Below are positions 1-55,112 of a DNA stretch of 64,000 nucleotides, in pieces. Made by a program: the position numbers and the translations under genes. Numbering within the stretch: the first letter of the stretch is position 1; every line of letters begins with the position of its first letter. The DNA comes from Escherichia coli. Lineage in GTDB: Bacteria; Pseudomonadota; Gammaproteobacteria; Enterobacterales; Enterobacteriaceae. The DNA is taken from the NCBI RefSeq assembly GCF_009931435.1, contig NZ_CP043414.1; one strand, 5' to 3'. Under the pieces are notes generated by a model that had not been told where the DNA came from, searched no databases, and was given only the letters and a program-made list of their open reading frames with translations.

Positions 1-178
<178 letters not shown>

Positions 179-179
179 T

Positions 180-3110
<2,931 letters not shown>

Positions 3111-3635
3111 TTGTCATCCCTCCTCAGGGACGTAATAAGTTGATCCATCAATTATCAATGCATAGAAAACATATTATGTTTCGCGTTTACGATTATGCGG
3201 CGTTATAGAGGAATGGTTCAATTATTCTTTCCCCTAAGTCCGATTGCGGACATATATAAAGCACGTGAACACACATAAAGAAATAAATAACAAAAATACA
3301 TTATTTCAATAGGTTAATGAAAGCGCCAATTTTAAAACATAGACCATAAAAATATAAAACAACCAAACCAGACAAATAATGTATCAATAAGCAATGAACT
3401 TTACGCCATTCACTTTTTGAAAACGTCACCAAATCCCCAAAAACAATAATCTATAGCTATAAATAAAAATTAAAAATATTTTCAATGAATATAAATTTAT
3501 TGCTATTTCTATTACAAAGATGTCCTGACCTCTCATTCATTCTCTTCTTGTCAACATCGCGACAACTTTCGTAAAACATCCCCACCCTGCTTCAGGTATA
3601 CTATGCCCCTCGATTCCACAAACATCAGGCAGACC

Positions 3636-4610
3636 ATGACAGACCTAATCCAACGCCCTCGTCGCCTGCGCAAATCTCCTGCGCTGCGCGCTATGTTTGA
3701 AGAGACAACACTTAGCCTTAACGACCTGGTGTTGCCGATCTTTGTTGAAGAAGAAATTGACGACTACAAAGCCGTTGAAGCCATGCCAGGCGTGATGCGC
3801 ATTCCAGAGAAACATCTGGCACGCGAAATTGAACGCATCGCCAACGCCGGTATTCGTTCCGTGATGACTTTCGGCATCTCTCACCATACCGATGAAACCG
3901 GCAGCGATGCCTGGCGGGAAGATGGACTGGTGGCGCGTATGTCGCGCATCTGCAAGCAGACCGTGCCAGAAATGATCGTCATGTCAGACACTTGTTTCTG
4001 TGAATACACATCTCACGGTCACTGCGGTGTGCTGTGCGAGCATGGCGTCGACAACGACGCGACTCTGGAAAATTTAGGCAAGCAAGCCGTGGTTGCAGCT
4101 GCTGCAGGCGCAGACTTCATCGCCCCTTCCGCCGCGATGGATGGCCAGGTACAAGCAATTCGCCAGGCGCTGGACGCTGCGGGCTTTAAAGATACGGCGA
4201 TTATGTCGTATTCGACCAAGTTCGCCTCCTCCTTTTATGGCCCGTTCCGTGAAGCGGCCGGAAGCGCATTAAAAGGCGACCGCAAAAGTTATCAGATGAA
4301 CCCAATGAACCGTCGCGAGGCGATTCGTGAGTCACTGCTGGATGAAGCCCAGGGCGCAGACTGCCTGATGGTTAAACCAGCCGGAGCTTACCTCGACATC
4401 GTGCGTGAGCTGCGTGAGCGTACTGAATTGCCGATTGGTGCGTATCAGGTGAGCGGTGAGTACGCGATGATTAAGTTCGCCGCGCTGGCGGGTGCTATAG
4501 ATGAAGAGAAAGTCGTGCTCGAAAGCTTAGGTTCGATTAAGCGTGCGGGTGCGGATCTGATTTTCAGCTACTTTGCGCTGGATTTGGCTGAGAAGAAGAT
4601 TCTGCGTTAA
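3636..4610 (+). CDS. hemB: Porphobilinogen synthase (5-aminolevulinate dehydratase)
   Basis: The protein from [23 protein letters not shown]... is recognisable as E. coli HemB. The ORF-track start at 3603 gives an 11-aa extension; the ATG at 3636 matches the known N-terminus. Confidence 0.97.
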
Positions 4611-10715: not shown

Positions 10716-11028
10716 GCATCCGCGCACGCCAGCCGGATGCGGCGTGAACGCCTTATCCGCCTACATTTCGCCCATAAACCGTAGGCATGATAAGACGCGC
10801 ATAGCGTCGCATCAGGCATCTGCGCACAACTGCCGGATGCGGCGTGAACGCCTTATCCGGCCTACATTTCGCCCATGAGCCGTAGGCATGATAAGACGCG
10901 CATAGCGTCGCATCAGGCATCTGCGCACAACTGCCGGATGCGGCGTGAACGCCTTATCCGGCCTACATTTCGCCCATGAGCCGTAGGTATGATAAGACGC
11001 GTCAGCGTCGCATCAGGCATCTGCGCAC
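10716..11028. repeat. REP/BIME cluster (three tandem units of about 100-110 bp)
   Basis: gccggatgcggcgtgaacgccttatccggcctaca and aggcatgataagacgcg...cgtcgcatcaggcat palindromic units recur at about 10722, 10832 and 10933. Confidence 0.9.
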
Positions 11029-12973: not shown

Positions 12974-13270
<297 letters not shown>

Positions 13271-34960: not shown

Positions 34961-35032
34961 GGGGGGGGTATATTTTTTATATGGATGAATGCGGAAAAGT
35001 GGATAAAAACTTATTTGAGAAAAAATGGGTAC

Positions 35033-35392
35033 GCATGATAAGACACGCCTGCGTCGCATCAGGCATTGGTGCATGGTGTCGGATGCGGCGCGTGCGCCTT
35101 ATCCGACCTACGGTTCAGGCCTGTAGGCATGATAAGACGCGTCAGCGTCGCATCAGGCATCTGCGCACGGTGTCGGATGCGCCGCGTGCGCCTTATCCGA
35201 CCTACGGTTCAGGCCTGTAGGCATGATAAGACGCGTCAGCGTCGCATCAGGCATTGGTGCACGGTGTCGGATGCGGCGCGTGCGCCTTATCCGACCTGCG
35301 GTTCAGGCCTGTAGGCATAATAAGACGCGGTAAGCGTCGCATCAGGCATCTGCGCACGGTGTCGGACGCGCCACACAACACATCCGACAACA
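35033..35392. repeat. BIME array, four tandem units with a 94-bp period
   Basis: gcatgataagacgcg... recurs at 35033, 35127, 35221 and 35315. Each unit contains cgtcgcatcaggcat and gtcggatgcggcgcgtgcgccttatccgaccta REP palindromes. Confidence 0.92.
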
Positions 35393-43408: not shown

Positions 43409-44041
43409 ATGGATCCCTTGCACGCCGTTTACCTGACCGTAGGACTGTTCGTGATGACTTTTTTTAATCCGGGAGCCAATCTTTTTGTGGTGGTACAAAC
43501 CAGCCTGGCTTCCGGTCGACGCGCAGGAGTGCTGACCGGGTTGGGCGTGGCACTGGGCGATGCGTTTTATTCCGGGTTGGGTTTGTATGGTCTTGCGACA
43601 CTCATTACGCAGTGTGAGGAGATTTTTTCGCTTATTAGAATCGTCGGCGGCGCTTATCTCTTATGGTTTGCGTGGTGCAGCATGCGCCGCCAGTCAACAC
43701 CGCAAATAAGCACACTACAACAACCGATTAGCGCCCCCTGGTATGTCTTTTTTCGCCGTGGATTAATTACCGATCTCTCTAATCCACAGACCGTTTTATT
43801 TTTTATCAGTATTTTCTCAGTAACGTTAAATGCTGAAACACCAACTTGGGCACGTTTAATGGCCTGGGCGGGAATTGTGTTCGCATCAATTATCTGGCGA
43901 GTCTTTCTTAGTCAGGCGTTTTCTTTGCCCGCTGTGCGTCGTGCTTATGGGCGTATGCAACGCGTTGCCAGTCGGGTTATTGGTGCAATTATTGGTGTAT
44001 TCGCGCTACGCCTGATTTACGAAGGAGTAACGCAGCGGTGA
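43409..44041 (+). CDS. yahN: LysE/RhtB-family amino acid exporter
   Basis: 210-aa membrane protein starting MDPLHAVYLTVGLFVMTFFNPGANLF. See the finding on the upstream out-of-frame start. Confidence 0.88.
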   Translation: MDPLHAVYLTVGLFVMTFFNPGANLFVVVQTSLASGRRAGVLTGLGVALGDAFYSGLGLYGLATLITQCEEIFSLIRIVGGAYLLWFAWCSMRRQSTPQISTLQQPISAPWYVFFRRGLITDLSNPQTVLFFISIFSVTLNAETPTWARLMAWAGIVFASIIWRVFLSQAFSLPAVRRAYGRMQRVASRVIGAIIGVFALRLIYEGVTQR

Positions 44042-44166
44042 GCAGATAATTTACTCTCTACGTAATCAACCTGATTTGCCGAATCCCGCTCATCGGCGAT
44101 GATACCCCCCGTAATGCGTGGTCCTTATTTCCGATAAGTTTACTTGAGTCTTTAGCTTCCCATTTC

Positions 44167-44196
44167 AGCCCACTCTCCCCTGTGTGGGCTTTTTTC
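44167..44196 (+). terminator. Rho-independent terminator-like hairpin with a T-run
   Basis: agcccac (44167-44173) / loop / gtgggct (44184-44190), followed by tttttc. It lies 125 nt downstream of the yahN stop. Confidence 0.6.
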
Positions 44197-44267
44197 ATTT
44201 GTCTGCTTCAGTGAGTAGCTGGCAATGCTCCATCCACTCTGCAAGGATGATAATAAGAGGATCTGAT

Positions 44268-44450
44268 TCAGAAGAGTTTTGAAAAATTGGACCGCCATCG
44301 AGGCCTCGAACCCCGTACCATACAACAATCCTGGTTGTCGTCTGCTCTTCCTGATGAGCTAATGGCGGTTTGTGATATGAGCCTTACAGCATATTGTCTG
44401 TCAGGCTTGAGTGCGATGCGTAAGATACAGAAAAGACCCCACACAAACAT
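44268..44450 (-). CDS. Hypothetical 60-aa ORF at the position of K-12 yahM; coding status doubtful
   Basis: An ORF-track entry only, with no recognisable motif and no clear SD. It overlaps the tRNA-like sequence. A second short ORF in another frame (MAVQFFKTLLNQ..., from about 44301 downward) competes with it. Confidence 0.2.
   Translation of the reverse strand: MFVWGLFCILRIALKPDRQYAVRLISQTAISSSGRADDNQDCCMVRGSRPRWRSNFSKLF
44288..44368 (-). other. tRNA-like sequence (probable pseudo-tRNA or tRNA mimic), not a canonical tRNA
   Basis: The minus strand reads CCGCCAT TA GCTC ATCAGGAA GAGC AGACG ACAAC CAGGATT GTTGT ATGGTA CGGGG TTCGAGG CCTCG ATGGCGG T CCA. The 7-bp acceptor stem, D arm, T arm with TTCGA loop and encoded CCA all fit a cloverleaf. 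The D-to-anticodon junction (5 nt instead of 1) and the anticodon loop (A33, T37) do not. Confidence 0.5.
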
Positions 44451-44670
44451 GATGGAATTATGATTTTTTTCATATGAATGTCAACCAACACATTCATAAA
44501 ACACTCGCACAAGTTCACTTTTTAAGCAACATGACGCCGATCACAACAAAATATCGGCGAAAAAGGAGGGTAAATGCCATTTGACGTAGAGATAAGCAGA
44601 TGAAATGATTACCCGCTTTGCGATTCACTCTCTGATGGAATAAGAAATTGGAGATGGAAAAGTTTCTAAA

Positions 44671-45486
44671 CTAAAGAGTGTAGCGTATTTTAACGTGCTT
44701 ATTTACAGGATAATATTTGTCACCTAATTCCTGCACTCTATTAGATACCCATTGATTTAATCGTGCATCATCTCTGTATGTTTTTACGTTCAGAACGGAG
44801 AGCAATAACATCACTAGCGATTCAGGAAAAACAGGGTAAATATTTTTTAAGTGCAATAATAATTCATACGCAAGCGCCTGCTTAATAGGTGCGTCTGCGT
44901 CCGGAATGCGCGACATTTCGCGAAGCCATTTTTCTACATGCTCACATTCTTTCCCTTCACGGAAAAGTCTCAACAAAGGCATATGGTGCTCAAGAAGAAT
45001 GCATTTGCAATCTGTTCGTACTGAATCGATAAACTGCACTAATTTCTTAAGTCCGGTGAAGCGTCCGGCATGGATATTCTCTTTAATATCAAGAAACACG
45101 TCATCCTGATCATATACCCAAACGGTCCCTTTTTGATTTTCAAGTATCCGAAAAACAAACTTAATCGGGTAATCAGGGTAATCCACCCAGTCATAAACTC
45201 CAGGGAAATCATTAAACTGCACATTTATGGTAAGCGCATTGTCGGCTGCCCACTCGCAATCTCGTACGGCAGCCATGAGATAAATGAGTTTATCATCATC
45301 GACTAAATCATCACGACAATCATAAGGATAATCATAGTATTGTTTAATCAAAACCTTGAATATATCGACACAAGAAACCAGTGTACTTCTGATATCTTCA
45401 GGTAACTGATTGTTTTTAAACGTATTGTGTACGCTTTGTTTCGTATATAGCAACAAATTATTGTGCGGCGCTTTTAATGGTATCAT
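44671..45486 (-). CDS. yahL: Uncharacterised protein YahL (no recognisable domain)
   Basis: 271-aa ORF in a visibly AT-rich stretch. Its size and position (between yahK and yahN) match K-12 yahL. The protein sequence itself was not recalled, so the symbol is positional. Confidence 0.7.
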   Translation of the reverse strand: MIPLKAPHNNLLLYTKQSVHNTFKNNQLPEDIRSTLVSCVDIFKVLIKQYYDYPYDCRDDLVDDDKLIYLMAAVRDCEWAADNALTINVQFNDFPGVYDWVDYPDYPIKFVFRILENQKGTVWVYDQDDVFLDIKENIHAGRFTGLKKLVQFIDSVRTDCKCILLEHHMPLLRLFREGKECEHVEKWLREMSRIPDADAPIKQALAYELLLHLKNIYPVFPESLVMLLLSVLNVKTYRDDARLNQWVSNRVQELGDKYYPVNKHVKIRYTL

Positions 45487-54653: not shown

Positions 54654-55112
54654 GCCTGATGCGCTACGCTTATCAGGCCTACAGATTCTTGTGCCATTCG
54701 TAGGCCGGATAAGGCGTCCACGCCGCATCCGGCAATGGTGACAAATGCCTGATGCGCTACGCTTATCAGGCCTACAGATTCTCGCGCCACTCGTAGGCCG
54801 GATAAGGCGTTCACGCCACAACCGGCAATGGTGACAAATGCCTGATGCGCTACGCTTATCAGGCCTACAGATTCTTGTGCCATTCGTAGGCCGGATAAGG
54901 CGTCCACGCCGCATCCGGCAATCGTGACAAATGCCTGATGCGCTACGCTTATCAGGCCTACAGATTCTTGCGCCACTCGTAGGCCGGATAAGGCGTTCAC
55001 GCCGCATCCGGCAATGGTGACAAATGCCTGATGCGCTACGCTTATCAGGCCTACAGATTCTCGCGCCACTCGTAGGCCGGATAAGGCGTTCACGCCACAT
55101 CCGGCATGAACA
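54654..55112. repeat. BIME array, about five tandem units with an exact 93-bp period
   Basis: gcctgatgcgctacgcttatcaggcctacag recurs at 54654, 54747, 54840, 54933 and 55026. Each is followed by tcgtaggccggataaggcg...cgccgcatccggca. Confidence 0.95.

Follow-up and report, generated by a model that had tools for sequence, protein, structure and literature searches.

A tRNA-like element in the xtpA locus of Escherichia, its likeness to the phage tRNA gene argN, and the integrity of the overlapping XtpA frame

The closest described counterpart of the sequence analysed here is xtpA (b4845) of Escherichia coli K-12 MG1655, which is annotated as a 183-nt coding sequence (345252-345434) for a 'putative transcriptional regulator XtpA' and overlaps the start of yahM. 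By its title, the paper that introduced the gene describes xtpA as a leaderless mRNA including a tRNA-like sequence and reports an indirect negative effect of XtpA on the small RNA (sRNA) GcvB (Muto, Goto, Kurita, Ushida, Soma, Himeno 2022, J Biochem 171:459-465, PMID 35081614). RegulonDB v12 lists XtpA as a newly added small protein, citing Muto et al. The subject of our analysis is an 81-nt tRNA-like element at positions 44288-44368, on the minus strand, of a 64,000-nt stretch of E. coli DNA from contig NZ_CP043414.1 (hereafter the window). The 81 nt are 100% identical to K-12 positions 345334-345414, inside xtpA, and an ARAGORN call in K-12 with these same coordinates likewise falls within the gene. 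The element has therefore already been published and annotated: it is the tRNA-like core of xtpA, a small leaderless gene. The sequence is further said to be conserved in E. coli strains and to resemble tRNA-Arg genes of phages and pathogenicity islands, and a deletion mutant reportedly has a raised sensitivity to aminoglycosides. An earlier reading of the window, made from the sequence only (the sequence-only reading), had regarded the element as hidden in the spacer between yahN and yahL; this description has to be given up, since K-12 annotates xtpA across it, after Muto et al. 2022.

The locus in the window resembles that of K-12 closely. The gene order prpR-yahO-yahN-[xtpA element]-yahL-yahK is found in K-12 MG1655 and in the annotated genome that is 100% identical to the window. 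Both loci share the 81 nt, the promoter, the location between yahL and yahN and the 60-aa frame, which occupies 44268-44450 (minus strand, 60 aa plus stop, in the list of open reading frames (ORFs) as in the K-12 annotation). From the promoter through the xtpA stop three positions differ, and the peptide carries two substitutions relative to K-12, K19Q and K27Q. The window lineage also differs from K-12 by a frameshifted yahM and by a deletion 5' of the promoter, where 40 nt of the K-12 sequence are missing (region of window 44505-44545; alignment columns 157-196). Over 44100-44600 the window is about 9% divergent from most E. coli, and 17 of 5,174 records are at least 99% identical to it there.

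Other described tRNA-like sequences compare less closely. Fragments of tRNA genes occur at the boundaries of prophages and islands, for example ptwF at CP4-6 in K-12. These fragments, like our element, are non-functional tRNA-like DNA tied to horizontally acquired sequence, but they are partial 3' duplicates that arise from integration into a host tRNA gene, whereas the element is full-length and separately transcribed, has no partner repeat and derives from a phage cargo gene. The tRNA-like domain of tmRNA, the 3' tRNA-like structures of plant viruses and mascRNA share with the element a mimic of acceptor and T arm that lies within a larger transcript and could recruit tRNA enzymes. Unlike them, the element has no sequence or covariance-model match to any such Rfam family.

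The best overall explanation of our results, to which we assign a probability of roughly 0.8, is that the xtpA locus carries a non-decoding tRNA-like RNA derived from the phage tRNA gene argN, and that selection acts mainly on this RNA. A scan with XtpA as query, in one genome per species across 185,579 species, recovered the locus only from Escherichia and Shigella and from one metagenome-assembled genome. Nucleotide conservation was compared between seven lineages, namely the window, K-12, SCPM-O-B-8794, E. albertii, Escherichia sp. E1V33, E. ruysiae and E. whittamii, each non-coli species being represented by one genome. In this set the element has no variable column among its 81, while the adjacent leader has 33 among 83 (Fisher p = 4.5e-12). 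Within E. coli the canonical 81 nt were found in 4,821 of 5,170 records. A single change, which turns a G.U pair of the T stem into G-C, characterizes 301 records (O157:H7 and relatives), and about 47 records have other variants of the element, including a CCA-to-ACA change and an insertion of IS1. This insertion was seen in E. coli DETEC-S792, where IS1 (extract 3618-4315) lies inside the element after its position 62 (extract 3501-3562). Additional places of the element in some E. coli genomes had been considered as mobile copies; the one case examined was IS1 splitting the element, and this idea was dropped.

The frame for the peptide is broken in most of the non-coli lineages. Codon 4 of XtpA reads TGG in E. 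coli and AAG in E1V33, and is the stop codon TAG in SCPM-O-B-8794, E. albertii, E. ruysiae and E. whittamii. The latter two have in common a +1 frameshift ahead of the element, and E. ruysiae has in addition lost the start codon (ATG to AGG). As these two species are 96% identical across the locus we counted them as one lineage, and the XtpA frame is then broken in three non-coli lineages (four genomes). Read codon by codon, the sequences of E. albertii and SCPM-O-B-8794 offer no in-frame ATG, GTG or TTG after the stop and ahead of the element; in E. ruysiae and E. whittamii a TAA comes to lie just 5' of the element through the frameshift, and no ATG, GTG or TTG start follows it. An uninterrupted frame is present in most E. 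coli, in Shigella and in E1V33. A 1-nt deletion, however, cuts XtpA to 21 aa in 187 of 5,151 E. coli records, including Shiga toxin-producing E. coli (STEC) of types O26, O103 and O43, and the element is intact in the sequenced member of this truncated clade. Substitutions in codons 1-27 among the sampled E. coli and Shigella are non-synonymous in eight cases and synonymous in one. Parsimony over codon 4 makes TAG the ancestral state, so that the open XtpA frame would be derived in E. coli.

These observations bear directly on the possibility that xtpA is a peptide gene and nothing else, the tRNA-like shape being a relic of the source DNA and all function residing in the 60-aa XtpA. Both the published description and the RefSeq annotation treat xtpA as a protein gene, the ORF is intact in the majority of E. 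coli, in Shigella and in E1V33, and the two element variants that we examined closely are synonymous in the XtpA frame. What speaks against a peptide-only gene is that the element stays invariant, with zero synonymous change, in lineages whose XtpA frame is stopped at codon 4, frameshifted or deprived of its ATG, that a whole STEC clade of E. coli carries the truncating frameshift, and that the N-terminal half shows the 8:1 excess of non-synonymous over synonymous changes. We consider a peptide-only gene improbable. Because no frame on either strand accounts for the zero synonymous change where frames are broken, selection appears to be directed at the RNA, with the DNA as a less likely target, and not at the peptide.

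The cloverleaf that had been transcribed from the minus strand in the sequence-only reading is letter-exact in 44288-44368, and both ARAGORN and the minimum free energy (MFE) fold agree with it. The acceptor stem CCGCCAT/ATGGCGG (44368-44362 and 44298-44292) is 7/7 Watson-Crick paired. The D arm (44359-44344) has 4 bp, GCTC/GAGC, and an 8-nt GG-containing loop, ATCAGGAA. It is followed by an 'anticodon' arm, which in the MFE fold consists of a 7-bp stem and a 6-nt loop (44341-44322) and had previously been drawn with 5 bp and a 7-nt loop (44338-44322), by a variable region (44321-44316), and by the T arm (44315-44299), CGGGG/CCTCG, with 5 bp, one G-T pair among them, and the loop TTCGAGG. The discriminator T (44291) and an encoded CCA (44290-44288) complete the element. 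The cloverleaf is the MFE fold of the isolated 81-mer (z = -1.9) as well as of the element within its transcript, the five extra nucleotides between D and anticodon arms being taken into the 7-bp stem. Features of a canonical tRNA that are present comprise the 7-bp acceptor, G18 G19 in the D loop, T54-T55-C56-R57-A58 closed by G53-C61, and the 3' CCA; those that are lacking are U33 and a purine at 37 in a 7-nt anticodon loop, and the spacing of one nucleotide (26) from D stem to anticodon stem. The misfits pointed out earlier are real features of the sequence, the loop CAGGATT having A33 and T37 and standing after the five extra nucleotides.

Detection programs gave different answers for this structure. 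ARAGORN calls tRNA-Ser(gga) with coordinates identical to 44288-44368 (minus strand), calls the element in every genome checked, and made a single call in total when the 64-kb window was shuffled 60 times with dinucleotides preserved. Neither the tRNA nor the tmRNA model of Rfam, on the other hand, matched the element at E<=10, whether 501 nt or 97 nt were searched, and it lies below the gathering threshold of RF00005 (29 bits); with the same library the positive controls reached 53.6 bits (argN) and 68-72 bits (ileZ and argO). The non-canonical features, A33, T37 and the extra nucleotides, are sufficient for these models to miss it. The element is tRNA-shaped, yet it is no tRNA by covariance model, and model and loop anatomy together show that it is a non-decoder, as had been concluded from the sequence.

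The homology was found with a BLAST search of the 81 nt against 50,697 phage records, which returned full-length matches in lambdoid and Shiga toxin (Stx) phages. The best match (84.7% identity over 81/81 nt, E = 1e-17) comes from the Stx2e phage phiP27, where an 81-nt sequence that bears no annotation is flanked by ileZ and argO and takes exactly the slot that argN occupies in other Stx phages. This variant also occurs in the IncY plasmid-prophage pHX138.261ft_1 and in mEp460-like phages. Such degenerate, unannotated argN copies in the argN slot, those of phiP27 and pHX138.261ft_1 (extract 1501-1581) and of mEp460 (1001-1080), are missed by ARAGORN and Rfam alike. They are the closest relatives that we found, with 80-81 nt, 80-86% identity and the GGAAGAGCAGACGACA junction with its extra nucleotides. 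They differ from the chromosomal element in that they still reside in a phage tRNA cluster, have a centre without a clean anticodon-like hairpin and are not called by ARAGORN.

A comparison with true argN (tRNA-Arg UCG) leads to the same source. The element and argN have in common the acceptor strands including C1-G72, the D arm, the T arm, U73, CCA and an 8-nt upstream spacer; the aligned blocks are both acceptor strands, TAGCTCATCAGGA, CGGGGTTCGAG.CCTCG and TCCA, and the centre alone differs. The phage gene is 77 nt long, has the canonical 7-nt loop CUUCGAA and scores 53.6 bits with the Rfam tRNA model. The element, in contrast, has 81 nt, a replaced anticodon arm without the UCG anticodon and no tRNA score, and it is chromosomal, standing alone with its own promoter outside the ileZ-argN-argO cluster that lies downstream of Q and upstream of stx. 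With full-length homology and shared arms, the element is a chromosomal derivative of the phage cargo tRNA gene argN and not a decayed host tRNA. Several earlier statements can be revised on this basis. That the structure is too good to be due to chance is settled by the match at E = 1e-17. The notion of a decayed tRNA holds insofar as the element is tRNA-derived, but a host tRNA it was not, and the C at its 5' end, formerly listed as an anomaly, is inherited from argN with its C1-G72 pair.

Related forms of 74-78 nt with other odd anticodon arms were encountered on a Cedecea plasmid, on an Enterobacter IncC plasmid and in Yersinia phage YeP1. The relative on the Cedecea neteri plasmid (1001-1074 of the extract) directly follows a tRNA-Met and has a 6-nt loop; that on the Enterobacter hormaechei IncC plasmid (1001-1075 of the extract) adjoins blaSED, is recognized as tRNA-Gln(UUG) by ARAGORN and reaches only 32.9 bits with the Rfam tRNA model. 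Across the argN-type family the anticodon stem shifts by paired substitutions, CCAGC/GCTGG, ACAAC/GTTGT and ATAAC/GTTGT, if homology of the columns is assumed. IMG/VR held no exact match to the 26-nt centre of the element, i.e. no phage with the chromosomal version. Alignments of the leader and of the downstream flank with ileZ or argO, as possible decayed remnants of these genes, scored no better than shuffles (p = 0.26 and 0.37), and the short colinear patches were not significant.

Transcription of the element is indicated by a sigma-70 promoter on the same strand (44457-44484; 11/12 in the promoter scan), with the -35 box TTGACA at 44484-44479, a 16-nt spacer and the -10 box CATAAT at 44462-44457. 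The -10 hexamer ends 7 nt ahead of the A of the xtpA ATG (44450), a spacing that fits a leaderless mRNA. Its sequence is the same in the window, in K-12 and in most Escherichia species, and E. albertii shows a slight alteration. The element begins after about 82 nt of transcript. The 5' part of these, xtpA codons 1-25 (44377-44450, minus strand), is variable between species, and RNAalifold predicts two hairpins in it, the pairing of which survives one-sided changes as well as both-side changes at one pair. The codon-4 TGG/TAG site is among the one-sided changes (G.U to A-U). Promoter and leader had no BLAST match among the 50,697 phage records. The 8 nt directly before the element, ATCACAAA (44376-44369, minus strand), are homologous to the ileZ-argN spacer of lambdoid phages, and local alignments to the tRNA clusters of phiP27, pHX138, mEp460 and WGPS8 begin exactly at these 8 nt. 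A published reporter study confirmed a transcription start site in the yahM region and described a site for integration host factor (IHF) and repression by IHF, RNA-seq of MG1655 listed yahM-yahN as a convergent excludon or overlap, and 'yahM' was found to be induced in STEC adhering to epithelial cells. The element does lie in an expressed RNA, an option raised in the sequence-only reading, with the published start site and the RNA-seq overlap as evidence of expression. We also considered the xtpA RNA as a base-pairing sponge of GcvB and rejected this candidate: duplex energies of the whole RNA and of the R1 seed were no better than those of shuffles (69% equal or better), in a crude calculation that ignores accessibility.

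Promoter, leader and element form a block (window 44501 to 44279) that is convergent to yahN in all lineages. On its 3' side, yahN is conserved in every species examined, and the stretch from the CCA to yahN (the 'yahM' region) is non-homologous between species and only about 30 nt long in E. ruysiae. On its 5' side, immediately ahead of the xtpA promoter, lies a hotspot where gene content changes from one Escherichia lineage to another: E. coli and SCPM-O-B-8794 have yahK-yahL there, E1V33 has yahK alone, E. albertii has yahI-yahJ, and E. ruysiae and E. whittamii have a type I Zorya system (ZorC, ZorD). In E. ruysiae (extract 16-3881; ZorC 4.5e-57, ZorD E = 0) the distance from the end of this system to the xtpA -35 box is 83 nt, and the matching part is present in E. 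whittamii.

This arrangement could be taken to mean that the element acts at the level of DNA, as a protein-binding or attachment site that is held constant for reasons unrelated to RNA; every base of it is invariant, the loops included, and the hotspot adjoins the 5' boundary of the promoter-leader-element module. The variable content begins upstream of the promoter, however, and not at the element, and 81 contiguous invariant bases far exceed the needs of any known binding or crossover site. The conserved strong promoter, moreover, suggests that transcription matters. We therefore give a DNA-level role very little credence.

Even less probable is the proposal of the sequence-only reading that a decayed chromosomal tRNA gene was the attachment site through which the AT-rich yahL islet became integrated. 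Genes for tRNAs are classic integration sites, the islet (yahL, 44671-45486 on the minus strand, with flanks to about 45730) has a GC content of 0.30-0.42, and yahL is variably present: E. coli and SCPM-O-B-8794 alone have it, E. albertii, E1V33, E. ruysiae and E. whittamii do not, and the ORF is precisely deleted in E. coli DETEC-S792. But the element is homologous to a phage cargo tRNA and not to a host tRNA, and the species without yahL carry it nevertheless. The islet lies more than 200 nt from the 5' end of the element and upstream of the promoter, whereas integrases use the 3' half of a tRNA gene. This half has no second copy within 3 mismatches in the 64-kb window, no integrase-like ORF was listed between yahN and yahK, YahL has no Pfam domain, and yahN, the neighbour on the 3' side, is the one that is conserved in every species examined.

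Least tenable of all is a functional though unusual decoding tRNA, corresponding to the tRNA-Ser(GGA) of ARAGORN, for although the call recurs in every genome, acceptor, D and T arms and CCA are intact and the degree of conservation is tRNA-like, the element is not matched by the Rfam tRNA model at E<=10 where argN attains 53.6 bits, has A33, T37 and four or five extra nucleotides before the anticodon stem, or else a 6-nt loop in the MFE fold, lacks the long variable arm that seryl-tRNA synthetase requires under the identity rules of tRNA-Ser, and lies inside a translated ORF.

Returning to a non-decoding tRNA-like RNA as the product under selection, we propose the following course of events. 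The strong sigma-70 promoter would initiate transcripts on the A of the xtpA ATG or directly beside it, in keeping with the leaderless mRNA named in the title of Muto et al. 2022. About 82 nt further on, the transcript contains the 81-nt element with acceptor, D arm, T arm, discriminator and CCA intact and with a rebuilt anticodon arm that does not decode. The element stems from argN, the tRNA-Arg(UCG) gene of the ileZ-argN-argO cluster of lambdoid and Stx phages, with the degenerate 80-81-nt variants of the phiP27 type as nearest relatives. To judge from synteny, it probably became fixed beside yahN before the sampled Escherichia species diverged. In E. coli proper, an open frame through the element encodes the 60-aa XtpA, the reported indirect repressor of GcvB, and this frame may be a young and dispensable overlay on the RNA. 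Selection would mainly keep the folded tRNA-like RNA. Its elbow of acceptor and T arm, together with the CCA, would permit recognition by RNase P, by enzymes of 3' trimming or CCA repair and by T-arm modifiers, and the element could then act as a module for processing or stability, or mimic a tRNA. Recognition by tRNA-handling enzymes appears to us the most economical mechanism.

A more specific version holds that the tRNA-like RNA is the conserved product, that it was domesticated from argN before the sampled Escherichia species split and has since been preserved to the nucleotide, and that the XtpA frame is recent, was opened in E. coli by a TAG-to-TGG change at codon 4 and has repeatedly been lost; it might follow that xtpA phenotypes are wholly or partly effects of the RNA. 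For this version we see the odds as about even. A number of points weigh against selection on the RNA. About 5% of E. coli genomes are without the locus, which marks it as dispensable. The invariant element allows no covariation, so that its fold within Escherichia rests on thermodynamics, with a modest z of -1.9, and on homology. O157:H7 and S. flexneri each have a single-base variant of the element, and neither variant alters an amino acid of XtpA, as would also be expected under selection on the peptide. Two of the species with a broken frame, E. ruysiae and E. whittamii, are 96% identical to each other across this locus and count as one lineage, and every non-coli species is represented by a single genome. 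A processed RNA of about 81 nt may exist but is hypothetical so far.

Of the neighbouring genes, yahN (43409-44041, plus strand) and yahL had been guessed correctly, as annotation of K-12 and of the identical genome agrees with both names. The doubt that had been cast on the yahM ORF proved justified, and yahM is a doubtful gene. Its frame in the window (44152-44298, minus strand) begins with an ATG that is the first triplet of the 3' acceptor strand ATGGCGG and is frameshifted relative to YahM of K-12. The Prokaryotic Genome Annotation Pipeline (PGAP) labels yahM a frameshifted pseudogene in the genome identical to the window, indels against K-12 are seen in the alignment, and a frameshift is flagged in another E. 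coli strain too. Among the species compared, YahM has no conserved counterpart outside E. coli. The yahM frame on the minus strand furthermore reads through the intrinsic terminator of yahN (44168-44195, plus strand), a hairpin GCCCAC...GTGGGC followed by TTTTTT, to which a weak Rfam match essentially corresponds; on the minus strand a run of A precedes the hairpin. No Pfam domains were found in XtpA, YahM or YahL. In E. coli 19SZHZ886Rt, yahN is annotated as a frameshifted pseudogene (extract 1772-2442). At gathering thresholds, Rfam finds in the whole window only repetitive extragenic palindromic (REP)-type repeats, in four arrays (10784-10963, 12991-13269, 35032-35296 and 54703-55051) with 12 copies of naRNA4 at 60-78 bits.

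The tRNA-like finding itself is a rediscovery of a published and annotated element. What the comparison between species brings to it is the contrast between a core that is as constant across the genus as a real tRNA and a peptide frame that is interrupted in the majority of non-coli lineages and, within E. coli, in a major STEC clade. An invariant RNA with a decaying ORF is a testable qualification of the published, peptide-centred model, and our results further support treating yahM as a doubtful gene. If the proposed interpretation is true, xtpA would be a phage cargo tRNA that has been domesticated as a non-decoding structured RNA, and XtpA would be a protein-coding frame that arose de novo atop an RNA gene. 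The effects on GcvB and on aminoglycoside sensitivity would then need a reassignment test between peptide and RNA.

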